This document shows positions 26,606 to 56,107 of a stretch of 64,000 nt of DNA, in pieces. The notes beneath the pieces are model-generated. The model was not told the DNA's origin. It was given only the letters and a program-made list of their open reading frames with translations, and did no database searches. The stretch is from the NCBI GenBank assembly GCA_947474495.1, contig CANJIM010000001.1:27939-91938 (forward strand), given 5' to 3'. The position numbers and the translations under genes were made by a program. Source of the stretch: Rhodospirillaceae bacterium (GTDB taxonomy: Bacteria > Pseudomonadota > Alphaproteobacteria > SMXQ01). Numbering within the stretch: position 1 is the first letter of the stretch; the number at the start of each line of letters is the position of its first letter.

Positions 26606-27727
26606 TTAAGCGTGGCTGCTGGAGCCCGCCTTGACCTTGTCGAACATCGACCAGACGCCGGCTTCGCCGTCCCAGCTGCCCTTGCTGGCGGCCTTGGAAT
26701 ATTCCGTGGCGCGCTGCTCGAAGAAGTTGGCGTGCTCGACACCGTTGAGGATCTCGCTGAGCCAGGGCAACGGATGCGCCTTGGTCTGCTTGTAGCCGCT
26801 CGATTCCTCGATGAAATAGCCGAACACCGGGGTCAGCTTGAGCTGCGTCAGGCGCCAGTCGGCGACATAGCGCACATAAGCCTGGATATCCTCCGGCGTC
26901 ATGCCGTCGACCGGGCCCAAGCTGAAGGCGAGGTCGATGAATTTCTCTTCGAGGCCGACCATGGTCTTGGCGACGTCGACGATGTCGTCGCGCACCGCCT
27001 TGGTGACGGCGCCGGTCTCGCGGTTCCAGGTGTGGAACAGCTTGATGATGCCTTCGCAATGCAGGCTTTCGTCGCGCACCGACCAGCTGACGATCTGGCC
27101 CATGCCGTTCATCTTATTGTGGCGCGGGAAATTCAGCAGCATGGCGAAGCTGGCGAACAGCGCCATGCCCTCGGTGAAGGCGCCGAACATGGCGAGTGTG
27201 CGCGCCACATCGCCGACCGTGTCGGTTCCGAAGGTGTGCATGTAGTCGGCCTTGGCGCGCAGTTCGGCGTAATCGCGGAACGCCTCGAATTCCGACTGCG
27301 GCATGCCGAGCGTTTTCAGCAGCAGGGCATAGGCGTCGATATGGACCGTCTCCATGTTGGAGAAGGCGGCCATCATCATCTGCACTTCGAGCGGCTGGAA
27401 AATCGGGATGTAGCGCTTGAGATAATTGTCGCCGACCTCGACGTCCGACTGGGTGAAGAAGCGGAAGATCTGCGTCAGCAACGCACGCTCGGAATCGGTC
27501 ACGCGATCCGACGTCCAATCCTTGATATCGGAGCCGAGCGGCACTTCCTCACCCATCCAATGGGTCTGCTGCTGGCGCTTCCAGCAGTCGTAGGCCCAAG
27601 GATAACGGTCGACGTTGTAGGTGCCGGTGGCGGTCAAGAGACCGACCTTGCCGGTGCCGATCAGCGTGCGCGGGTTGACGCCGATGAGGCCCTTAGGCGG
27701 AAGATCGATCACTGACATGACAGGCAT
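26606..27727 (-). CDS. nrdB: Class I ribonucleotide reductase small (beta) subunit
   Basis: 373 aa, ferritin-like di-iron motifs (E..H twice) and HIDAY radical-tyrosine context. Overlaps the nrdA end by about 19 nt. Confidence 0.85.
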   Translation of the reverse strand: MPVMSVIDLPPKGLIGVNPRTLIGTGKVGLLTATGTYNVDRYPWAYDCWKRQQQTHWMGEEVPLGSDIKDWTSDRVTDSERALLTQIFRFFTQSDVEVGDNYLKRYIPIFQPLEVQMMMAAFSNMETVHIDAYALLLKTLGMPQSEFEAFRDYAELRAKADYMHTFGTDTVGDVARTLAMFGAFTEGMALFASFAMLLNFPRHNKMNGMGQIVSWSVRDESLHCEGIIKLFHTWNRETGAVTKAVRDDIVDVAKTMVGLEEKFIDLAFSLGPVDGMTPEDIQAYVRYVADWRLTQLKLTPVFGYFIEESSGYKQTKAHPLPWLSEILNGVEHANFFEQRATEYSKAASKGSWDGEAGVWSMFDKVKAGSSSHA

Positions 27728-29715
27728 TCCTCGTAATCGGTCGGCGCTGAGGCCGTCAAACCGGATTCAACTTTTTCTTCCAATTGGCCGGCGATGGCGG
27801 CGCGCGACAGCGACTTCGAGCGGCAATAGTAGAGGCTCTTCATGCCGCGCTTCCACGCCGTCCAGTGCAACATGTGCAGGTCCCACTTATCGATGTCGGC
27901 CGGCAGGTAAATGTTGATCGACTGGCTCTGGCAGATGTAGGGCGCGCGGTCAGCGGCGAGATCGATGATCCAGCGCTGATCGATCTCAAAGGCGGTGCGG
28001 TAGATCAGCTTTTCGTCGTCGGTCAGGCAATCGAGCTGCTGCACCGAGCCTTCGTGCTCGACGATGGACTGCCAGACTTCCGGCGTGTCCATGCCCTTCT
28101 TCTGCAGCAGCTTGGTGAGCTGGGCATTGCGCACCACGAAGGCGCCGGACAGCGTTTTATGCGTGTAGATATTGGCCGGAATCGGCTCGATGCAGGCACT
28201 GGTGCCGCCGCAGATAATGCTGATCGACGCCGTCGGCGCGATCGAGATCTTGTGGCTGAAACGCGCCGCCATGCCGCGCTCGGCGGCGTCCGGGCAAGCG
28301 CCGCGCTCTTCGGCGAGCAGCACCGAGGCGGCATCCGCCTCGCGGCGGATCTTGCGGAAGATGCGCATGTTCCAGGATTTCGCCAGGGCGCTTTCCATCG
28401 GGATGCCTTCGTCCTGCAGGAACGAATGGAAACCCATGACGCCGAGGCCGACCGAGCGCTCGCGCATCGCCGAATATTTGGCGCGTTGCATGCTGTCGGG
28501 CGCGATGTCGACGAAGAAGGTCAGCACGTTGTCGAGCATGCGCAGCACGTCTTCGACGAGGTTCGGCTCGTCGCACCATTCGTGCCAGGTCTCGATGTTG
28601 AGCGAGGCGAGGCAGCAGACGGCGGTGCGGTCTTCGCCGCGATGGTCCATGCCGGTCGGCAACACGATCTCGCTGCACAGGTTCGACGTGGTGACCTTGA
28701 GGCCGAGGTCGCGCTGATGCTTGGGCATGGCGCGGTTCACCGAATCGATGAACAGCAGATAGGGTTCGCCGGTCTGTAGGCGCGTCTCGAGAATGCGCTG
28801 CCACAGCTGGCGGGCATCGACCTCGCGCACCGGCTCGTTGTTCTTCGGGCTGCGCAGCTTGAACATGGCGCCGTCGCGCACGCAGTCCATGAACTCATCG
28901 GTGATGTTCAGGCCGTGATGCAGGTTGAGGCCCTTGCGGTTGAAGTCGCCCGAGGCCTTGCGGATTTCGAGGAACTCCTCGATCTCCGGATGATGAATGT
29001 CGAGATAGACGGCGGCCGAGCCGCGGCGCAGCGAGCCCTGGCTGATGGCGAGGGTCAGGCCGTCCATGACATGGATGAAGGGGATGATGCCCGACGTCTC
29101 GCCGTTGCCCTTCACCTTCTCGCCGATCGAACGGACCTTGCCCCAATAGGTGCCGATGCCACCGCCGTTGGAGGCAAGCCAGACGTTCTCGTTCCAGGTG
29201 TCGACGATGCCGTCGAGCGAATCGGGCACGCTGTTGAGGAAGCAGGAGATCGGCAGGCCGCGCGTCGTGCCGCCGTTCGACAGGATCGGCGTCGAGGGCA
29301 TGAACCACAGGCGCGACATGGCGTCGTACAGGCGCTGGGCGTGCTCGACGTCGTCGGCATAGGCGCAAGAGACGCGGGCGAACATGTCCTGGAAGCTTTC
29401 GCCCGGCATCAGGTAGCGGTCGGTCAGGGTGGCCTTGCCGAATGGCGTCAGCAGTTCGTCGCGCGAGCGGTCGAGCTTGAGGTCGGACGGCTGCGGCGGA
29501 CGCGCCAGCGGAAAGGGCAGCGGCGCGTGGCGCTCGACGCGCGGGCCGTCCTGCGGATGGGTCGCCGGCGTGGCGAAGGCCATGGCCGCCTGACGCGGCG
29601 CCTCCGCGACGACGCGCGGCTGCTGCAGCACCGGGCGCACCGGCGCCGGCGGCATCATCGGCGCCTGCGGCACGAGATTGCCCTGATGATCGAAGTCCAA
29701 TGCGAGAGACGACAT
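27709..29715 (-). CDS. nrdA: Class I ribonucleotide reductase large (alpha) subunit (no N-terminal ATP cone apparent)
   Basis: RNR_lg motifs PFIHVMDG..., SNLCSEI, C-terminal CxxC...ECLSCQ redox tail. Start placed at ATG 29713-29715 (MSSLALDF) preceded by GAGGGGAG. The ORF-track start at 29748 is a TTG. Confidence 0.85.
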   Translation of the reverse strand: MSSLALDFDHQGNLVPQAPMMPPAPVRPVLQQPRVVAEAPRQAAMAFATPATHPQDGPRVERHAPLPFPLARPPQPSDLKLDRSRDELLTPFGKATLTDRYLMPGESFQDMFARVSCAYADDVEHAQRLYDAMSRLWFMPSTPILSNGGTTRGLPISCFLNSVPDSLDGIVDTWNENVWLASNGGGIGTYWGKVRSIGEKVKGNGETSGIIPFIHVMDGLTLAISQGSLRRGSAAVYLDIHHPEIEEFLEIRKASGDFNRKGLNLHHGLNITDEFMDCVRDGAMFKLRSPKNNEPVREVDARQLWQRILETRLQTGEPYLLFIDSVNRAMPKHQRDLGLKVTTSNLCSEIVLPTGMDHRGEDRTAVCCLASLNIETWHEWCDEPNLVEDVLRMLDNVLTFFVDIAPDSMQRAKYSAMRERSVGLGVMGFHSFLQDEGIPMESALAKSWNMRIFRKIRREADAASVLLAEERGACPDAAERGMAARFSHKISIAPTASISIICGGTSACIEPIPANIYTHKTLSGAFVVRNAQLTKLLQKKGMDTPEVWQSIVEHEGSVQQLDCLTDDEKLIYRTAFEIDQRWIIDLAADRAPYICQSQSINIYLPADIDKWDLHMLHWTAWKRGMKSLYYCRSKSLSRAAIAGQLEEKVESGLTASAPTDYEECLSCQ

Positions 29716-29834
29716 GCCCACTCCCCCTCTAAAAAAACTCTGACTCAAATGCCGGCCGGGGTAATCGGACTCTTGCAGGACTCGGAATCGTCTCCTGCAA
29801 GCGTCGTCGGATCACCCCGCCCGAAAACTGTTTC

Positions 29835-30005
29835 GGCGTGCACGGCAGGTCTCCTGGCTCGCGGGTCGTCGCCGCTGTCTGGCCTTCCCGGCGCGCAACG
29901 CGCCAGTGGCGGTAATGACAGCAGGCTCGCCGCTTACAGTTGCGGGGGCAGCCCCGGCTTAAGCGCATCGCGCCGCACCGGCTTCCCTCTTAGCCCCGGA
30001 TATTG
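29835..30005 (-). promoter_or_regulatory. Cobalamin (B12) riboswitch in the nrdAB leader
   Basis: The minus-strand RNA contains GCUGCCCCCGCAACUGUAAGCGG, GCCACUGG, GGGAAGGC and the B12 box AGCCAGGAGACCUGCC (complement of + 29845-29860), in the order of the cobalamin riboswitch core. Confidence 0.85.
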
Positions 30006-30120
30006 CGATCCGGAGAACCGTGGACCCCAGATTTAGTGATGAAGGGCCCAACCCTGTCAAGCAACCGCTGGAAGCCCGCGGAAACATTGGCTCTGCGCCC
30101 ACCGAAGAAATTTCACGGGC

Positions 30121-31693: not shown

Positions 31694-32902
31694 TTAAACC
31701 GGCTTGCCGGCGGCCGGTTTCACCCAGCCGGCCGGGATGGCGGTGGTGATGCAAATCAATGAGAAGCCCGCCGAGGCCCAAAACACCATGCCGGGCGAGG
31801 CTCCATCCATCAGCAAGCCATAGATCGTCGGCGACACCGCATGGCCGAACATGAAGCCGGTGGTGACGAACGCGAAGACGGTGCCGACGCTGGCCCCCGG
31901 CACGGCATGACGGACCATGACGTCGCGCGAGGTGTTCACCAAACCGCGCAAGGCGCCGACGCTGGCGAGCAGCACGAGGGCGATCCAGAACGGCAGGCCG
32001 GACAGGCCGACCGCCGCGACCATCACCGCGCTGACGGTGAAGGAGGCCACCAAAGCCAAGTTGTGATGTTTGGTGTAGTCGGCGAGCAGGCCGCCCGGCA
32101 GCACGGCGATCAGCGAGGCAATCATATAGACCGTCAGCGCCATGTTCGCCGTGGTCAACGAGATGCCGTAGATGTCGATCAGCGCCGAGACGGCGAATTG
32201 CGAGATACCGGCGTTGGCCGCCGACGAGGCCGCATAGAAGGTGAAGAACAACATCACCGTCGGCGAGGTCACCATGTCGCGCCAGGTCAGCGAACCGGCG
32301 CCGCGCTTCTTCGGCGCGCCGCCCTCGCCGATCACACCCGAGCAGGCGAGCAGCACGATCGACAGTGCCACGCCGATGCCGCCGATGATCGCCACGGCCA
32401 TGCGCCAGTTGGTCAACTCGTAGAGAGTGACCATGACGAAGGGCGCGATGGCGAAGCCGATGGAGCCGCCGAAGGTGTGGATCGAGAAGGCGCGGCCGAG
32501 CCGCTTCTCGCTCACCGTGCCCGACAGGATCGAATAATCGGCGGGATGAAAGACCGAACTGCCGACGCCGGCGAGCGCCATCAGCGCGATAAGCTGCCAA
32601 TAGCTGTCGATCACCGAGACAAGCGCGATGGCCGCGCCGTTGAGGAACAGGCCGCAGACCAGCACCGGGCGTGAGCCGATCCGCTCGCAGACGAAGCCCA
32701 TCGGCGTCTGCAGCACGCCGGTGAAGGCGGCGAACACTGCGGTCGCCACCCCGAGCGCGGCATAATCGAACCCGAGATCGGCGCGGATGACTGGAAAGAG
32801 CGGCGGCAAGACCAGCATGTAGAGATGGCTCAGCATGTGGGCGAAGCTGATCAGCCCCACCACCTGCGTCTCGCGCCGCCCCATCCCGATCGTTATCGCC
32901 AT
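31694..32902 (-). CDS. MFS transporter
   Basis: 402 aa, 12 TM, MFS motif A region (GxLaDrxGrR-like: CERIGSRPVL). Confidence 0.8.
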   Translation of the reverse strand: MAITIGMGRRETQVVGLISFAHMLSHLYMLVLPPLFPVIRADLGFDYAALGVATAVFAAFTGVLQTPMGFVCERIGSRPVLVCGLFLNGAAIALVSVIDSYWQLIALMALAGVGSSVFHPADYSILSGTVSEKRLGRAFSIHTFGGSIGFAIAPFVMVTLYELTNWRMAVAIIGGIGVALSIVLLACSGVIGEGGAPKKRGAGSLTWRDMVTSPTVMLFFTFYAASSAANAGISQFAVSALIDIYGISLTTANMALTVYMIASLIAVLPGGLLADYTKHHNLALVASFTVSAVMVAAVGLSGLPFWIALVLLASVGALRGLVNTSRDVMVRHAVPGASVGTVFAFVTTGFMFGHAVSPTIYGLLMDGASPGMVFWASAGFSLICITTAIPAGWVKPAAGKPV

Positions 32903-33045
32903 GAACGCGTCCCGCCCTGAAAATTCCGCTTCAGTGGGCTATCAGACCGTTCCCCCTCGCGCAAGGCGCTAAGGTATGGATTGTTGCTGATTGGGCGTGC
33001 CGTTGAGCCGGCCGCGATCTCGTTTCGCTAAGTGGTCATGCCCAC

Positions 33046-33080
33046 CCAAAAGAAAGGCCGCGCTCCGAAGAGCGCGGCCC
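33046..33080 (-). terminator. Rho-independent terminator downstream of csbD
   Basis: Hairpin GGCCGCGCUC-uucg-GAGCGCGGCC followed by UUUCUUUUGGG on the minus-strand transcript. Confidence 0.7.
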
Positions 33081-33103
33081 GATCCGGTAAGAGAGAAGCC
33101 GCC

Positions 33104-33304
33104 TTAACGGTAGGTCTTCTCCCAATCCTGCACTTGCTTGTCGGCCTCATCCTTGGCGATGCCGTAGCGCTCCTGAATGCGGCCGACCAACTCGTCGCGC
33201 GTGCCCTCGGCCACGGTCAGGTCGTCGTCGGTGAGCTTGCCCCACTGTTGCTTGACCTTGCCTTTGGCCTGTTTCCAATCGCCTTTGATCTGATCCCAAT
33301 TCAT
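33104..33304 (-). CDS. CsbD-family general stress protein
   Basis: 66 aa from MNWDQIKGDWKQAKGKVKQQWGKLTDDDL...RIQERYG. Canonical CsbD repeat. ORF-track start at 33424 is upstream of the promoter motif so the shorter start is preferred. Confidence 0.8.
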   Translation of the reverse strand: MNWDQIKGDWKQAKGKVKQQWGKLTDDDLTVAEGTRDELVGRIQERYGIAKDEADKQVQDWEKTYR

Positions 33305-33378
33305 CGTCGAACTCCTTTGTGATGCGGCGCACCAAGGCGCCATGGAAAAGATGCCGGACTGCGCCGGCTTAAAGGAGC

Positions 33379-33404
33379 AACGGTCACCGGCGCGGCCTTG
33401 TTCC
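33379..33404 (-). promoter_or_regulatory. EcfG-type (general stress sigma factor) promoter motif GGAAC-N16-CCGTT upstream of csbD
   Basis: The minus strand reads GGAACaaggccgcgccggtgaCCGTT about 75 nt upstream of the csbD ATG. This matches the alphaproteobacterial EcfG/RpoE2 consensus GGAAC-N16-17-CGTT. Confidence 0.6.
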
Positions 33405-33458
33405 GGTTCCGAGAAAAGTTCCATTTCAACGAGTTAAACGGCAGTGCCGGGTCCCATG

Positions 33459-33484
33459 GGAACTATGTCCGCGGAGCGAGCGTT
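33459..33484 (+). promoter_or_regulatory. EcfG-type promoter motif GGAAC-N17-CGTT upstream of the DUF3309 gene
   Basis: + strand GGAACtatgtccgcggagcgagCGTT, about 80 nt upstream of ATG 33564. Divergent from the csbD promoter. Confidence 0.6.
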
Positions 33485-33563
33485 GGCCGAATGATCAAGA
33501 ACAAAACTGGCGTTCGGTCATCGCATCGACGCCATAAACACACATCACCGCAAGGGGACGACC

Positions 33564-33719
33564 ATGCTGAGCACGATCCTGTTGATTTTCCTGATCCTGA
33601 TTTTGGTCGGCGCGCTGCCGACCTGGGGTCACAGCCGCAATTGGGGCTACGGGCCGAGCGGCCTGACCTTCGTGCTGCTGATCATCTTGATCGTCCTGCT
33701 GGCAACCGGCCGCATCTAG
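33564..33719 (+). CDS. DUF3309-family small membrane protein
   Basis: 51 aa, MLSTILLIFLILILVGALPTWGHSRNWGYGPSGLTFVLLIIILIVLLATGRI. Not in the ORF track (too short); matches the conserved alphaproteobacterial DUF3309 pattern (PTWxxSRxWGYGPSG). Confidence 0.7.
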   Translation: MLSTILLIFLILILVGALPTWGHSRNWGYGPSGLTFVLLIILIVLLATGRI

Positions 33720-33735
33720 CGATCAGGATGTGACG

Positions 33736-34011
33736 ATGCCGCGTCGCCGCAAAGCGACATATGCCGCCAAGCAAATGCGTCAAGCGCGTCACATCGAAGA
33801 AGGCCACGAAAAGCGCGGCGTCGGCGAAAAAGTAGCCGAACGCCGCGCTTGCGCCACCGTCAATGATCAGGGCATCAACGACGAGGCCGGCGGCGCCAAG
33901 AAGAACAGCGGTGACTGCGGGAAACCGTTCGCTCGCTACCAAGATACCCTCGGCCAGGCAAGCCGCGCCGACGCGCAAGCGCAAAGCCAGCGCCAAGAAA
34001 TAGCGAGCTGA
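33736..34011 (+). CDS. Hypothetical small basic protein (91 aa), wedged without gaps between the DUF3309 and DUF421 genes
   Basis: Start MPRRRKATYAAKQMRQARHIEEGHEKRG. Operon-like packing (17 nt after previous stop, 8 nt before next start) and coding-like GC3. No family recognised. Confidence 0.45.
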   Translation: MPRRRKATYAAKQMRQARHIEEGHEKRGVGEKVAERRACATVNDQGINDEAGGAKKNSGDCGKPFARYQDTLGQASRADAQAQSQRQEIAS

Positions 34012-34018
34012 CGACAGC

Positions 34019-34522
34019 ATGTTCGACCTGACGCTGCCGTGGTGGGAACTTATTCTCCGCGGCGGCGGAATTTATTTGACCGTGATTTTGCTGCTGCGCA
34101 TCAGCGGCAAACGTGAGCTCGGCCAATTGACGCCGTTCGATTTCGTCCTGTTGATGCTGATCAGCGAAGGCGCGTCCAACGCGCTGACCGCCGGCGACGA
34201 TTCATGGCTCGCCGCGGTGATCGTCATCACCACCATGCTGCTGCTCAACGCCGGCCTTGGCTATATGACGGCGCGGCATGCGCGCGTCGAGCGCTGGATG
34301 GAAGGGCGGCCGCGTTTTCTCATCCGCGAGGGCCGCGTGCTCTATGCCGCGCTGCGCAAAGAAACGATTTCCAACAATGAATTGATGGCGGCGCTGCGCC
34401 AGAACGGCTGCTTCCGCCCGTCGCAGGTGGAATACGCCATATTGGAAACGACCGGCGAGATTTCGGTCAAGAAGCGCGACGACGACGGCGACGAAGCGCC
34501 GCCGTCGAAGAACCGGCCTTAG
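34019..34522 (+). CDS. DUF421 (YetF-like) membrane protein
   Basis: 167 aa, two N-terminal TM helices, the DUF421 core and a YetF-like C-terminal soluble region. Confidence 0.7.
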   Translation: MFDLTLPWWELILRGGGIYLTVILLLRISGKRELGQLTPFDFVLLMLISEGASNALTAGDDSWLAAVIVITTMLLLNAGLGYMTARHARVERWMEGRPRFLIREGRVLYAALRKETISNNELMAALRQNGCFRPSQVEYAILETTGEISVKKRDDDGDEAPPSKNRP

Positions 34523-34555
34523 CTCACCTATTGCCGCCCCGTGAGGGCGAAGCGC

Positions 34556-34933
34556 TTACCAATTGCCGGTCGTCGAAATCCAGTCGGGATCTTCCTGCGA
34601 GGTGCGCTCGAAGGTCAGGAAGTCGTAATAGCCGCAATGGCCATCGCCGGGGAATTCGCGGCAGATGCGCGGACGGCCTTCATAAATCGTGCAGCGGCGC
34701 AGATCGCGGTCGAAGAACTTGCAAATCGTGCCGAAATGCTCGTCGGCATGATGGCGCAAAATGCGCTCGCCCGGCTCGGCGCCGGCCTTGGTGTGTTTCT
34801 CGCGCGCTTGTTTTTCGCTGATGCCGAAATATTTTCCCAGCCGCTTGATGTCGAAGTCGGAAACGATGACACGGGCATAAGAGCAGCACTGCCCCGGGCA
34901 TTTCGAGCAGTCGTAGAGCTTTCGCTTCGCCAT
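34556..34933 (-). CDS. YkgJ-family cysteine-cluster protein (UPF0153)
   Basis: From MAKRKLYDCSKCPGQCCSY...CTIYEGRPRICREFP...HCGYY. CxxCxxxCC plus a second Cys cluster typical of YkgJ/Fe-S or Zn-binding proteins. Start at 34933 preferred over the ORF-track 35035. Confidence 0.7.
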   Translation of the reverse strand: MAKRKLYDCSKCPGQCCSYARVIVSDFDIKRLGKYFGISEKQAREKHTKAGAEPGERILRHHADEHFGTICKFFDRDLRRCTIYEGRPRICREFPGDGHCGYYDFLTFERTSQEDPDWISTTGNW

Positions 34934-44045: not shown

Positions 44046-44093
44046 TCAAGATGTGAGCGGAACCAGCCAAGGACGCGAGGCGTTACTGTTTGC

Positions 44094-46139
44094 ATGACCT
44101 TAAATTCGCCCTCACAGCTGCTCTCCTGGCGCCCGCGCTGGACAGTCCCCCGCATTTTGGCGGGAATTTTCGCCCTGCTTGTCATCGGGATCGCCGTCTT
44201 CCTGGTTTTCTTTAATTGGAACCTGCTGCGGCCCATGGTCGAGCGGCAGGCCTCGCACGCCCTTGGACGTCCCGTTACGATCGGCAGTTTCGACGTGAGC
44301 CTGCGCCGCGAAAGCTGGATCGAGATGCACGACATCACCGTCGCCAATGCGCCGGGTTTCGAAGGTCCGCATCTCGCGACGATCGACCGCGTCGCGATCC
44401 AGGTCCGAACCTTCCCGCTCCTGATCGGCCGCATCGAAATCCCCGAGATCGCCGTGCTGCGCCCCAAAGGACGCATTGAGACCAACGCTGCCGGCAAGAA
44501 CAATTACACGTTCGATATGAACAAGGATGGCGGTGACAGCGGTCCTAATATCGTCCTCGGCCATCTCACCATCGACGATGCCGACATCCGTTACATCGAC
44601 GTGCCGAACAAGACCGATCTCAAGCTGCATGCCCAGACCGATAAGCTCGGCGCCAAGGAACCGATTGTGAAGGTGACCGGCGACGGTCGCTACAACGGCC
44701 AGCCGAGCAAGCTCAATCTCCAGGGCGGCGCGCTGCTCGCCTTCCGCGATCCGACCATTGCCTACCCTGTCGATTTCGCTGCCGATGTCGGCCGCACCCA
44801 CGCCAAGATCAAGGGCACCATTGAGCGGCCGCTCGACTTCAAGGGCGCCAAGCTGCAGCTCGACATCTCCGGCGACAGCATGAGTGAGCTTTACCCTCTG
44901 ATTGGCTTGCCGATCCCGGCGACGCCGCCCTACACCCTCAAGGGCGGCCTCGATTTCGCCGGCAAGATCATCGTGTTCCAGAACTTCGCCGGCACGGTCG
45001 GCAACAGCGATCTCGGCGGCGACTTCGCCGTCAATCTCGAGAACGCGCGGCCGAAAATGACCGGCTATTTGATCTCCAACAAAGTCGTGCTCGCCGATTT
45101 GGCCGGCTTCATCGGCGCCCCGCCGGGCAAAGAGGACGATCCGAAAAGCAACACCGCCACGCACAAGGCGATCGAACAGAAGGCCGACGCCACCGGCCGC
45201 CTATTGCCGACCGAGCCGCTCGCGCTCGATAAGCTGCGCGCATTCGACGTCGACGTGGTGTTGCGCGGCGAACGCATCGAGTCGGATTTCACGCCTCTCG
45301 ATAAGCTGAAAGCCACGCTCAAGATTGATGACGGCTTTCTAACATTGAAGCCACTGGCCTTCGGCATTGGTGACGGCACCATCGACATGAATATGGATCT
45401 CGATGGCCGCAAGAATCCGGCAGCGGTGGATTTCACCGCCGAGTTCAAGAACGTCGATCTCAAACGCATCATGCAGGAGACGCAACTCTTCCAAGGCGTC
45501 GGCCGCATCGCCGGCAACACCCGTATCGTCACGACCGGCAATTCGATCTCCGATATGCTCGGGCGCGGCGACGGCGAGCTGCAACTCTTTATGGAGGGCG
45601 GCACCTTTAGCAAGCTGCTGCTCGAACTGGTCGGCCTCGATGTCACCGAAGCTCTCGGCTTCCTACTCGAAGGCCAAGACAGGCAGGCCGAATTGCGCTG
45701 CTTGATCGCCGATATGAAGCTGCAGAAAGGCATCTTGACGCCTGACACCCTGTTGCTCGACACCAGCGACACCAACATCAACGTCACCGGCGGCATCAAC
45801 CTGCGCGACGAGACGATGGATCTGCGCATCGTGCCGGCCCCAAAGGATATGAGCATCTTGACGCTGCGCGGCCCGATTCGCGTCGATGGGCCGATGCGCA
45901 ATCCCGGCATCCAGCCGGAAGCCGGCAATCTCGCCGGCCGCACCACGGCGGCGGTCCTGCTCGGGATTTTGCTGACGCCGCTCGCCGCCATCATTCCGAC
46001 CATTGAACTCGGTCTCGGCGAAGACAGCGATTGCACGGGCCTCATCAAAGAAGTCCGCATCAAGGCCGCCGAGCGCAATATGCCGATTCAGGTGCCGACC
46101 AAGCCGGCCGCGGCGCCGCCCTTCGCGCCGACGAAATAA
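44094..46139 (+). CDS. AsmA-family outer-membrane-assembly protein
   Basis: 681 aa, N-terminal TM anchor, long beta-rich AsmA/AsmA_2 body, Pro/Ala-rich C-terminus. Confidence 0.75.
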   Translation: MTLNSPSQLLSWRPRWTVPRILAGIFALLVIGIAVFLVFFNWNLLRPMVERQASHALGRPVTIGSFDVSLRRESWIEMHDITVANAPGFEGPHLATIDRVAIQVRTFPLLIGRIEIPEIAVLRPKGRIETNAAGKNNYTFDMNKDGGDSGPNIVLGHLTIDDADIRYIDVPNKTDLKLHAQTDKLGAKEPIVKVTGDGRYNGQPSKLNLQGGALLAFRDPTIAYPVDFAADVGRTHAKIKGTIERPLDFKGAKLQLDISGDSMSELYPLIGLPIPATPPYTLKGGLDFAGKIIVFQNFAGTVGNSDLGGDFAVNLENARPKMTGYLISNKVVLADLAGFIGAPPGKEDDPKSNTATHKAIEQKADATGRLLPTEPLALDKLRAFDVDVVLRGERIESDFTPLDKLKATLKIDDGFLTLKPLAFGIGDGTIDMNMDLDGRKNPAAVDFTAEFKNVDLKRIMQETQLFQGVGRIAGNTRIVTTGNSISDMLGRGDGELQLFMEGGTFSKLLLELVGLDVTEALGFLLEGQDRQAELRCLIADMKLQKGILTPDTLLLDTSDTNINVTGGINLRDETMDLRIVPAPKDMSILTLRGPIRVDGPMRNPGIQPEAGNLAGRTTAAVLLGILLTPLAAIIPTIELGLGEDSDCTGLIKEVRIKAAERNMPIQVPTKPAAAPPFAPTK

Positions 46140-46759: not shown

Positions 46760-46784
46760 GGAACGGTAAGCGCAACCTCTCGTT
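46760..46784 (+). promoter_or_regulatory. EcfG-type promoter motif GGAAC-N16-CGTT upstream of the outer-membrane beta-barrel gene
   Basis: + strand GGAACggtaagcgcaacctctCGTT, about 95 nt upstream of ATG 46879. Confidence 0.55.
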
Positions 46785-46878: not shown

Positions 46879-47415
46879 ATGAAACGTCTTTTGATAGCGA
46901 CCGCCTTCCTGGCATTGGCACCGTTTGCCGCGCAGGCCCAATCGGCCAGCGACATCGTCGGCCCGCGCGAAGGCAGCCAGGAAATCACCCTGTCGGGCAC
47001 CGGCGGCAACAACAACGATTTTAACGCCGGCAGCTTCGGCATCAGCGGCAGCTACGGCTACTACTTCACGCCGGCCTTCGAAGGCGGCCTTCGCCAAACT
47101 CTGAGCTGGTCCGGCGGCGACAATACCGACGACAACTGGAGCGGCTCGACCCGCTTCTTCGTCGATTATCACTTCAATACGACCGGCAAGTTCAAGCCCT
47201 TCGTCGGCTTGAGCCTCGGCGGCACCTATGGCGACGGCGTTCCGGACACTGGCTTCGGCGGCCCTGAAGCCGGCATTAAGTATTATGTGAACGCGACGAC
47301 CTTCGTCCTCGCGCAGACGGAATATCAGTATTATTTCAACAGCGGGGATAGCGCCGCGAACAACTTTGACGACGGCGCCTTCGTCCACACCATCGGTCTC
47401 GGCTTCATTTTCTAA
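46879..47415 (+). CDS. Small outer-membrane beta-barrel protein (OmpW/OmpA-like 8-strand barrel family)
   Basis: Signal peptide MKRLLIATAFLALAPFAAQA, alternating aromatic/Gly beta-strand pattern, C-terminal Phe (GLGFIF). Confidence 0.75.
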   Translation: MKRLLIATAFLALAPFAAQAQSASDIVGPREGSQEITLSGTGGNNNDFNAGSFGISGSYGYYFTPAFEGGLRQTLSWSGGDNTDDNWSGSTRFFVDYHFNTTGKFKPFVGLSLGGTYGDGVPDTGFGGPEAGIKYYVNATTFVLAQTEYQYYFNSGDSAANNFDDGAFVHTIGLGFIF

Positions 47416-47483: not shown

Positions 47484-47900
47484 TTACAACCCGAAGGCGC
47501 GCGCCAGGCGGCTGCCGATCAGGAGGGCCAGCACCGAAGCGAGACCGGTCAGCACCGCGCCCCACACCATGTCGGCGAGCGTGACGTTGAGCGACCAATT
47601 CCGCAATGTCGCCAGATTGGTCAGGTTGTAAGTGGCGTAGGCGCAGAGGCCGAACAAGGCGCCGCGCCACAGGGCGTCCTGCCATTGGCCGGATTTCAGG
47701 GCCGGCGCCAGAACCAGGCCGACCACGCCGACCGCGTAGATGACATAGAAGATTCCCGCCGGAACCGGGCGAAAGCCATCGGCCAGCAAACTGCCGAGTT
47801 CGGGCTTGTAGAGGCGGTTGACCATCGTCAGCAGCCAGACGGCATCGAGTCCGAGCAGCAGTAGCAGCACGAGCACATAGTGCAGAAGGTAGACGGCCAT
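47484..47900 (-). CDS. DUF2177-family membrane protein
   Basis: 138 aa, four TM helices, conserved DUF2177-like pattern. Confidence 0.6.
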   Translation of the reverse strand: MAVYLLHYVLVLLLLLGLDAVWLLTMVNRLYKPELGSLLADGFRPVPAGIFYVIYAVGVVGLVLAPALKSGQWQDALWRGALFGLCAYATYNLTNLATLRNWSLNVTLADMVWGAVLTGLASVLALLIGSRLARAFGL

Positions 47901-48486
47901 GACGCTCTCCTTTGCCGGACAATGGAACCGGATGGTGTGACGGCTAGCTTAGATCACCGGAACGACAAGGTGGGCGCCACGTTGACCTCGCGCGACCCCC
48001 GCCCGTCGCCCAGATCTCATCCCAGGGCCATGCGGCTTATACGGCGCGGCTCGCCAGGAGGATGCTTGAGAATGCCCACGAAAGATGCCCCGAGGACGCC
48101 CTCTAGGATATCGACCGGCTCGATAGCGGCCAAACGCCTGTCGGCACTGCATTTTGAGGACGATGTGAAAATCCAGCCCGCCGCCTTTGTCAGTGCCGCC
48201 GACAGCTTACGGAGGAAAATTCGAGCCTGCGCCGCGCGCAGCTTCGCGGCGCAGCATAGAACGGCCGACACAGCGGCTGGTCTGAAGGATGGTGGGGAGA
48301 AGTCCCAGGCGGGCCTGCTTTCGCGGCAGACCATCCGCCGGATCCTGCTGGATGCGCCGAGGGCCTAGAGCTTAAGCCCGAAGGGAAAAGGGGCCCCAGA
48401 TGGGCCGCGGCTCGGTTTGCCGCACGGCGCCCGCAGAGCGCCGCTCAATCGCAAGACATATTAGACACAAGACAGATCGGACACTG

Positions 48487-48515
48487 GCGGTCCCGGCGGC
48501 ATGCCGCCGGGACGC
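48487..48515 (-). terminator. Probable terminator downstream of the HU gene
   Basis: Perfect 11-bp stem GUCCCGGCGGC-aug-GCCGCCGGGAC followed by a U-rich tract on the minus transcript. Confidence 0.6.
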
Positions 48516-48538
48516 GCGCAGAACGTCCGCAGAAAGCC

Positions 48539-48850
48539 TTAGACGGCTTCCTTCAGCTCCTTAGCCGGGCGGAAGGCGACCTTCTTGCTCGCCTTGATCT
48601 TGATGGCTTCGCCGGTGGCCGGGTTGCGGCCCATGCGGGCGGCGCGCTTGCGGACCTGGAGGATACCCAGGCCGTTGAGGCGCAGACGGTTGCCCTTCTT
48701 CAGATGCTTGGTGACCATGGCGACAAAGCTGTCGAGGATCGCCGTGGAATCTTTCTTGGTCAGTTCATGAGCTTCCGCCAGTTCGGCAGCGAGCTGCTTG
48801 AGGGAAACGGTCGGCACCTTCACGGTGGCAGTCTTCGGGGTAGTCGCCAT
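48539..48850 (-). CDS. HU-family histone-like DNA-binding protein with about 15-aa N-terminal extension
   Basis: From MATTPKTATVKVPTVSLKQLAAELAE...GNRLRLNGLGILQVRKRAARMGRNPATGEAIKIKASKKVAFRPAKELKE. The HU/IHF arm motif (RNPxTGE) is present. Strong RBS GGAG. ORF-track start 48937 rejected. Confidence 0.85.
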   Translation of the reverse strand: MATTPKTATVKVPTVSLKQLAAELAEAHELTKKDSTAILDSFVAMVTKHLKKGNRLRLNGLGILQVRKRAARMGRNPATGEAIKIKASKKVAFRPAKELKEAV

Positions 48851-55751: not shown

Positions 55752-55967
55752 TCAGGTCTTGGGCTTCGCCATCGGCTGTTGAGGGCGCTTCGATTTGCCA
55801 GCCGCGATGGTCGCCGGCGTGCCCGACGTTTCCGGGGCCTCACCGCTACGCGCGCCATAGGCTTCACGCAACGGCGCGCGCCCTAACGGTTGCGACGGAC
55901 TCGTCTCGATGCCGCCTTTGTCGACATTGCGTGGCTGTTTGAGCGACGATTTGCGCGACGTTGTCAT
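55752..55967 (-). CDS. Hypothetical small basic protein
   Basis: 71 aa MTTSRKSSLKQPRNVDKGG..., RBS GGGAGA 7 nt upstream. No family recognised. Confidence 0.35.
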   Translation of the reverse strand: MTTSRKSSLKQPRNVDKGGIETSPSQPLGRAPLREAYGARSGEAPETSGTPATIAAGKSKRPQQPMAKPKT

Positions 55968-56107
55968 GCGATTCTCCCAACCGTTTGTCCGAAGGCAACG
56001 ATGTGGCACGAGAGCCGTTCCCGTTCGTTAAGGCCTTGTAACGCAAGAGCTTAGGACTCCGACGACGCGAGCCTTAGAAAAGCCCTTTATATCTGCGATA
56101 ATGAAAC

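Follow-up and report, generated by a model that had tools for sequence, protein, structure and literature searches.

A divergent csbD/DUF3309 locus with two EcfG-type promoter motifs and a probably decaying middle gene in an alphaproteobacterial genome

Organization of the csbD/DUF3309 locus

The DNA analyzed here is a 64,000-nt stretch from a Rhodospirillaceae bacterium (GenBank assembly GCA_947474495.1, contig CANJIM010000001.1, positions 27,939 to 91,938 of the forward strand), hereafter called the window, and all positions given are those of the window unless a relative is named. It contains a small divergent locus in which csbD is read away from a DUF3309 gene, an open reading frame (ORF) of 91 amino acids (aa) and a gene for a DUF421/YetF-like protein. 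The spacer between csbD and the DUF3309 gene holds two outward-facing matches to the promoter consensus of the general stress sigma factor EcfG. Very probably, the locus is a divergon that answers to general stress through EcfG. The genes are as follows; for csbD, the DUF3309 gene and the DUF421/YetF-like gene (yetF below) the coordinates include the stop codon.

33104..33304, minus strand: csbD, 66 aa, monocistronic (PF05532, PRK10428)
33564..33719, plus strand: DUF3309 gene, 51 aa (PF11752)
33736..34011, plus strand: 91-aa ORF, an apparently degenerate, frameshifted copy of a family of about 100 aa labelled 'plasmid stabilization protein'
34019..34522, plus strand: DUF421/YetF-like membrane protein gene, 167 aa, last in the operon (PF04239)

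The three gene identities proposed in the initial annotation (csbD, DUF3309 and DUF421/YetF-like) are each backed by a Pfam match above the cutoff. CsbD covers profile positions 1-52 of 53 in PF05532 (E = 1.1e-21, 76.9 bits against a cutoff of 40), its residues 1-64 are matched by the NCBIfam model PRK10428, and the gene has an AGGAG ribosome-binding site 8 nt 5' of its ATG. The DUF3309 protein aligns with the whole of PF11752 (profile positions 1-50 of 50; E = 5.4e-21, 74.9 bits against a cutoff of 22.3), and its sequence is probably that of a very small, mostly hydrophobic membrane protein with two segments. In the last gene, the YetF C-terminal domain is clearly present (PF04239, E = 7e-19, 68 bits against a cutoff of 23.6), and the YetF_N transmembrane domain (PF20730) reaches 21.1 bits against a cutoff of 26.5, aligning over profile positions 13-42 of 76 only.

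The plus-strand genes had been described as following one another without gaps, which is nearly right: the gaps are 16 nt, between the DUF3309 stop (33719) and the ATG of the 91-aa ORF (33736), and 7 nt, between the stop of that ORF (34011) and the yetF ATG (34019). A terminator scan found no terminator-like site in either gap, and its only plus-strand match (34056-34069) falls within yetF. The short gaps and the lack of a terminator-like site in either of them fit a single transcript for the three genes. The word 'island', also used for the locus, was loose, as its composition is unremarkable (G+C content of 0.605, against 0.637 for the window) and its gene order is found in relatives. Horizontal acquisition was rejected as an explanation, with no compositional sign of it and with synteny kept in the relatives.

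Two EcfG-type promoter motifs

The csbD/DUF3309 spacer is 259 nt long and contains two promoter motifs, one on each strand.

33379..33404, minus strand: EcfG-type promoter of csbD; -35 box GGAAC (33404-33400), 17-nt spacer, -10 box CGTT (33382-33379); exact match
33459..33484, plus strand: EcfG-type promoter of the DUF3309 operon; -35 box GGAAC (33459-33463), 17-nt spacer, -10 box CGTT (33481-33484); exact match

Direct inspection of the sequence and a pattern search both recover the two GGAAC-N16/17-CGTT motifs reported in the initial annotation, with the same coordinates, strands and spacings. The minus-strand motif can also be read as GGAAC-N16-CCGTT, with CCGTT at 33383-33379, and lies 75 nt from the csbD ATG (33304); on the other strand, 80 nt separate the CGTT from the DUF3309 ATG (33564). 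Both motifs are correctly oriented and less than about 100 nt upstream of a coding sequence, and their -35 boxes face outward, 54 nt apart. Transcription would be predicted to start near 33369-33373 on the minus strand and near 33491-33494 on the plus strand.

The frequency of the motif was assessed by searching both strands of the window for GGAAC-N16/17-CGTT, with 100 dinucleotide-preserving shuffles as the background. Six matches were observed against 1.03 expected, a number that was reached in one of the 100 shuffles. By the background rate of the shuffles, the expected number of occurrences of two correctly oriented matches in a single 259-nt spacer is about 4e-6. A promoter scan of positions 32900-34700 found no sigma-70-like promoter, and an Rfam search of the csbD/DUF3309 spacer gave only weak terminator-like matches.

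Conservation in related genomes

The same gene order was found in five near-identical metagenome contigs (L001-L005), two metagenome-assembled genomes (MAGs; L006 and L007), three freshwater contigs (L013-L015) and one more distant contig (L099). It consists of an MFS transporter gene, csbD, and then the DUF3309 gene, the middle gene, yetF and a convergent CxxCxxCC gene. In all of these relatives the csbD/DUF3309 spacer carries one motif per strand, and four diverged lineages have retained both promoters at matching positions and in the same orientation.

In an alignment of the spacers from the window, L006 and L007, both -35 boxes and the plus-strand -10 box are 100% invariant, against only 22% of the 219 other columns. 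All three sequences have the minus-strand CGTT, which shifts by one position because the boxes are separated by 16 or 17 nt. The DUF3309 ribosome-binding site (AAGGGGAC) is likewise 100% invariant in this alignment, and the extended plus-strand blocks ATGGGAAC and AGCGTTGG are identical in these three and in L099. Across the lineages, the two -35 boxes are separated by anything from 32 to 63 nt, and the promoters therefore look independent rather than like parts of one composite element.

The ratio of nonsynonymous to synonymous substitution rates (dN/dS) against the relatives is 0.04-0.19 for csbD, 0.06-0.09 for the DUF3309 gene and 0.17-0.34 for yetF, and YetF from the window is 87% and 71% identical to the products of the syntenic genes in L006 and L007, respectively. 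In some relatives, gene callers lengthened DUF3309 to 76 aa (L013, 3753-3983) and csbD to 106 aa (L003, 6-326), and both extensions cross the promoter motifs. The short forms of 51 and 66 aa are favoured because of their Pfam coverage and conserved ribosome-binding sites.

Features of the csbD transcript

Three further elements were detected on the csbD strand.

33055..33080, minus strand: strong intrinsic terminator 3' of csbD, with an 11-bp stem (nine G-C pairs) followed by TTCTTTT (terminator scan and sequence)
33353..33368, minus strand: hairpin at the predicted 5' end of the csbD mRNA (GCCGG, 6-nt loop, CCGGC)
33406..33410, minus strand: another GGAAC, in tandem with the csbD -35 box and 1 nt upstream of it (GGAACCGGAAC)

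The 5' hairpin, which is also flagged by the scan for terminator-like sites, has nine of its ten stem positions invariant and a variable loop in the window, L006 and L007, and is found in L099 too. It may have a role such as stabilizing the 5' end of the mRNA. The tandem GGAAC is invariant at all five positions in the window, L006 and L007 and is absent from L099; its distance from the CGTT is too great for the two to pair as a promoter.

Candidate sigma factor and host

GGAAC-N16-CGTT is the experimentally established EcfG consensus in Sphingopyxis granuli, in which csbD carries the EcfG motif and is 639-fold down in an ecfG1 ecfG2 double mutant (PMC7083833). For Sphingomonas melonis a comparable motif was derived, positioned no more than about 100 nt from the start codon, and the EcfG-regulated genes with this motif include outer-membrane proteins (PMC6599016). 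EcfG has been described as exclusive to the Alphaproteobacteria (PMC3892343). The MAG relatives are labelled Alphaproteobacteria and Hyphomicrobiales, and the best named matches to the ribonucleotide reductase encoded in the window are 76-84% identical and belong to Dongiaceae, Stellaceae, Desertibaculum and Thalassobaculum (Alphaproteobacteria), one record labelled Microbacteriaceae being the exception among the matches examined. Judged by these matches, the host is alphaproteobacterial.

The initial annotation had proposed a divergon with two EcfG-type promoters, and this proposal gains support from the conservation of the motifs, the invariance of their boxes, the scan result for sigma-70-like sites and the precedent of csbD in S. 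granuli. For the proposed recurrence of DUF3309 in the EcfG regulon, a literature search gave no support: of the two papers found to mention DUF3309, neither deals with the general stress response in its title or abstract.

The middle gene of the operon

The 91-aa ORF had been described as basic, and its predicted product indeed has an isoelectric point of 9.75. It had also been thought to encode a real stress protein, which a homology search might confirm. Such a search does find a family, with the match confined to residues 1 to about 65 (E = 1e-16 to the related protein P0002; 672 cluster representatives at E < 1e-3). The family is real, large and often preceded by the EcfG-type motif, and to that extent the proposal stands; the copy in the window is frameshifted and has lost invariant residues. 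Its position in register inside the operon, which had been taken as a sign of function, is no evidence of it. The locus shows that an open, well-spaced ORF within an operon may still be a decaying gene.

The syntenic gene is intact elsewhere. Its product is 103 aa long in L007 and 123 aa long in L006, and it has a tail rich in lysine and alanine. A DNA alignment with L007 gives a net 44-nt deletion in the window copy, and what is left of the tail lies in another frame.

33917..34003, plus strand: vestige of the ancestral tail rich in lysine and alanine (...TRKRKASAKK, stop), placed by three-frame translation in the +1 frame with respect to the 91-aa ORF

In a tblastn search, residues 76-103 of the L007 protein (AAKRSSAAKTASAKKAATTRKRKASAKK) match window positions 33917-34000 with 68% identity (E = 1e-9), in a frame other than that of the head. 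The reading frame of the ORF therefore misses the ancestral stop codon and terminates 8 nt beyond it, after an unrelated tail in which lysine and arginine account for 4 of 30 residues against 17 of 46 in the intact form. Rescue by programmed frameshifting at GGGAAAC (33919-33925) was considered and rejected; this sequence could act as a -1 slippery site only if ribosomes were already translating the tail frame, and that frame is closed upstream.

The head of the protein has also changed. Where the family has G4, K14, Y24, E33 and W39, the window copy has R, M, H, V and C; G4, Y24, E33 and W39 are invariant among 120 relatives, and K14 is kept in 117 of them. Of the 40 columns with at least 95% conservation, 12 are altered in the window ORF and 0-3 in the 120 relatives, and the window copy departs from the family-invariant linker GGGKKSGSGRGK. 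Its G+C content at third codon positions (GC3) is 0.68, against 0.81-0.90 in the neighbouring genes. Three differences separate the 91-aa ORF of the window from that of L001-L005, all of them nonsynonymous and one of them removing G4, and no differences from L001 occur in csbD, the DUF3309 gene or the 156 yetF codons compared. The same frameshifted form is present in five independent metagenome contigs, and it is therefore real and fixed in a population, not a sequencing error. From this pattern of changes we infer a loss of function, and the 91-aa ORF is probably a decaying gene rather than a working protein.

A different rearrangement is seen in L099 (815-1165), where an in-frame fusion joins the middle gene to the C-terminal half of yetF and gives a protein of 116 aa that has lost both the basic tail and the YetF membrane domain. 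Unless it is an assembly artefact of a single contig, this fusion would represent a second, independent erosion of the operon. Together, the frameshift in the window and the fusion in L099 indicate that the downstream part of the operon is eroding in at least two lineages.

Proposed regulation and alternative explanations

The best explanation for these observations is a chromosomal, EcfG-controlled stress divergon with two outward promoters and a decaying middle gene, to which a probability of roughly 0.78 is assigned. In the established model of the response, stress leads to phosphorylated PhyR, which captures the anti-sigma factor NepR and frees EcfG (ECF15). At this locus, EcfG would then direct RNA polymerase to both promoters of the 259-nt spacer. 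From one promoter, a short monocistronic csbD mRNA would be made, carrying the 5' hairpin and ending at the terminator at 33055-33080; from the other, the DUF3309 gene, the degenerate ORF and yetF would be transcribed as one mRNA. Small, hydrophilic CsbD, the very small and probably membrane-embedded DUF3309 protein and the YetF-type membrane protein would thus be induced together, and the nature of these products suggests protection at the membrane. The degenerate middle gene would still be transcribed, and perhaps translated, as part of the operon.

Several points weigh against this explanation, some concerning the promoters and some the middle gene. EcfG dependence, stress induction, the start sites and co-transcription are all deduced from the sequence; a regular-expression search of the window for ECF sigma factor, PhyR and HWE kinase signatures found none, so that the window has no PhyR-NepR-EcfG genes and no sigma factor gene to tie to the motif; and an AAC-containing -35 box is common to many extracytoplasmic function (ECF) sigma factors (PMC7083833). 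It is conceivable that the motifs are real promoters read by another ECF sigma factor of similar GGAAC/CGTT specificity, responding to a narrower signal than general stress. This is improbable, given that the exact consensus is the one experimentally defined for EcfG in Alphaproteobacteria, that the genes match known EcfG targets (csbD and a 'plasmid stabilization protein'), and that the same motif precedes an outer-membrane beta-barrel gene in the window, outer-membrane proteins being among the EcfG-regulated genes of Sphingomonas melonis. That both motifs are mere chance matches in a G+C-rich spacer, with the genes transcribed from unrecognised housekeeping promoters, can hardly be credited. 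The motif does have only nine specified bases, and one shuffle of the window did reach six matches; however, the expectation for a correctly oriented pair in this spacer is minute, both motifs are kept in four lineages while their flanks diverge, and the scan offers no sigma-70-like site in their place.

The other points concern the 91-aa ORF, which is open, has an AGGA ribosome-binding site and keeps its operon spacing, with a stop codon 7 nt before yetF. Its 42-codon head has a dN/dS of 0.16-0.47 (0.16 against L007), which alone is no proof of relaxed selection, and the frameshifted form is fixed in a population. These features would suit a working protein, shortened or neofunctionalised, whose less basic tail is tolerated or useful; a product of this reduced length could retain a function of some kind or be of use in translational coupling. 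A working protein is nonetheless unlikely in view of the dozen altered near-invariant positions (G4, K14, Y24, E33 and W39 among them), the loss of the conserved, lysine- and arginine-rich tail, the lowered GC3 and the exclusively nonsynonymous differences from the nearest relatives beside unchanged neighbouring genes.

The family of the middle gene

With an intact relative as the query, at least 8000 proteins are matched. Many of them bear the name 'plasmid stabilization protein' in NCBI and UniRef, or 'plasmid stabilization system protein ParE' at JGI. When the 91-aa ORF, the alternative-frame tail and intact relatives were scanned against Pfam and NCBIfam, no family was found for this protein, the sole exceptions being the DUF421 half, derived from yetF, of the fusion protein P0003 and one non-significant NCBIfam match (E = 0.039). 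A sequence search of the PDB gave no match. An AlphaFold model has a mean predicted local distance difference test (pLDDT) score of 71.6, with a helix-loop-helix head (pLDDT of about 87; helices 11-26 and 31-46) and a low-confidence tail; a Foldseek comparison of the model with the PDB gave nothing at E < 1 and no functional lead. The ParE label is unsupported, as these scans and searches found no ParE/RelE-type toxin domain, PDB sequence match or fold match. The consensus of the head is MPRGxK..Y..KQKRQA.HIEEGYEKRG...EAERRAWATVN, and it is to this N-terminal head that the window ORF is homologous. The tail of the family is conserved in sequence, beyond mere composition.

The promoters of the family were surveyed in 80 metagenome loci, of which 74 had enough upstream sequence to be scored for the strict motif (GGAAC-N16/17-CGTT, sense strand, within 250 nt). 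The motif is present in 20 of the 74, and its density is 1.23 per kb upstream of family genes versus 0.087 per kb in the remainder of these loci. Of 23 motif matches, 16 have a CGTT that ends 33-38 nt before the ATG of the family gene. A DUF3309, yetF or csbD gene occurs near the family gene in only 4 of the 80 loci, and there is no general linkage. Two loci have overlapping motifs that face each other: in L016 (3933-3959) they lie between an intact family gene and a divergent PRC-barrel gene, and in L072 they lie between an intact family gene and a csbD match found about 150 nt upstream of it on the other strand.

The EcfG regulon of S. granuli includes a 'Plasmid stabilization protein', SGRAN_3795 (7.5-fold, GGAAC...GGTT promoter; PMC7083833), which, to go by the shared name, may belong to the same family. 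Tentatively, and at somewhat below even odds, the family can be proposed to be a widespread, unrecognised small effector in the general stress response of Alphaproteobacteria, with a helix-loop-helix head and a histone-H1-like tail of lysine and alanine, mislabelled in databases and lost piecemeal in the present clade; the protein may bind nucleic acid or ribosomes. If this is true, the piecemeal loss (the frameshift here and the fusion in L099) implies that the family gene is dispensable behind DUF3309. As a family of thousands with a misleading 'plasmid stabilization/ParE' label, no curated model and a positional tie to a stress motif, it is a defined candidate for functional study.

Comparison with known systems

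The promoters of the locus resemble P-csbD and P-nepR2 of S. granuli TFA (PMC7083833) in their -35 GGAAC, -10 CGTT, 16-17-nt spacer and csbD target. Those of the window are predicted from sequence, and they differ in the tandem GGAAC and 5' hairpin found at the csbD promoter. A short spacer between divergent stress genes is also found in S. granuli between the nepR2-ecfG1 operon, whose promoter is putatively EcfG-type, and ecfG2 (PMC7083833); there, however, the genes are regulators rather than effectors, and the EcfG consensus occurs on one side only, ecfG2 being without it. The arrangement here also differs from that in L016 and L072, with promoters back-to-back at 32-63 nt instead of overlapping face-to-face. 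The predicted leaders, at 65-73 nt, exceed the approximately 30 nt implied where a relative of the 91-aa ORF is served by a promoter of its own. The 91-aa ORF itself differs from its family in lacking the conserved tail, 12 near-invariant residues and a promoter of its own. In other Alphaproteobacteria, phyR adjoins nepR-ecfG in a divergent arrangement.

In Bacillus subtilis, csbD was named for its control by sigma-B, as part of the general stress regulon. CsbD of that species and its YetF/YdfS proteins, which are located in the spore inner membrane, belong to the same families as those of the window (PF05532 and PF04239), whereas the sigma factor and the regulatory logic differ; YetF is also shorter here than Bacillus YetF/YdfS, at 167 aa and with an N-terminal domain below the Pfam cutoff. 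No alphaproteobacterium is known to form endospores. YetF-family proteins contribute to the wet-heat resistance of Bacillus spores (PMC10126465), a role that fits one in stress protection.

The locus adds a well-supported EcfG target and extends the motif to an uncultured alphaproteobacterial clade, which is useful for annotation and unsurprising. Added to the initial annotation are the decay of the middle gene, the association of its family with the promoter motif, and the tandem GGAAC and 5' hairpin of csbD.

Other EcfG-type motifs and features in the window

The four further matches to GGAAC-N16/17-CGTT in the window all lie in intergenic spacers, which fits an organism that uses an EcfG-type sigma factor. 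The motif at 46760-46784 (plus strand) is followed after about 95 nt by the signal-peptide start (MKRLL...) in a gene at 46879-47415 (plus strand) for a 178-aa outer-membrane beta-barrel protein (PF13505, E = 1.9e-7), which is likely to be a further general-stress target. The motif at 55997-56021 (minus strand) lies 30 nt before a 71-aa hydrophilic ORF at 55755-55967 (minus strand; MTTSRKSSLKQPRNVDKGG...), which has a GGGAG ribosome-binding site and no Pfam match and may encode an unannotated small stress protein.

The motif at 47959-47983 (plus strand) lies in a 640-nt spacer (47901-48538) with no convincing gene downstream of it, the sole candidate being a 98-aa ORF at 48072-48368 without a Pfam match. 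An Rfam search of 47900-48540 gave only weak terminator-like matches, and this motif could drive a small RNA or a small protein of no known kind. The last motif, at 44059-44084 (plus strand), ends only 10 nt short of the start codon in the gene for a 681-aa AsmA-family protein (44094-46139); a leaderless transcript, a mis-set start codon or chance could each explain it.

Among the remaining features of the window is a ribonucleotide reductase alpha-chain gene (27709-29748, minus strand; PF02867 and PF00317). It is immediately preceded, at 29827-30037 on the minus strand, by a cobalamin riboswitch (RF00174, 127 bits). A gene for the bacterial small signal recognition particle RNA (RF00169, 60.8 bits) is present at 910-1006, also on the minus strand.

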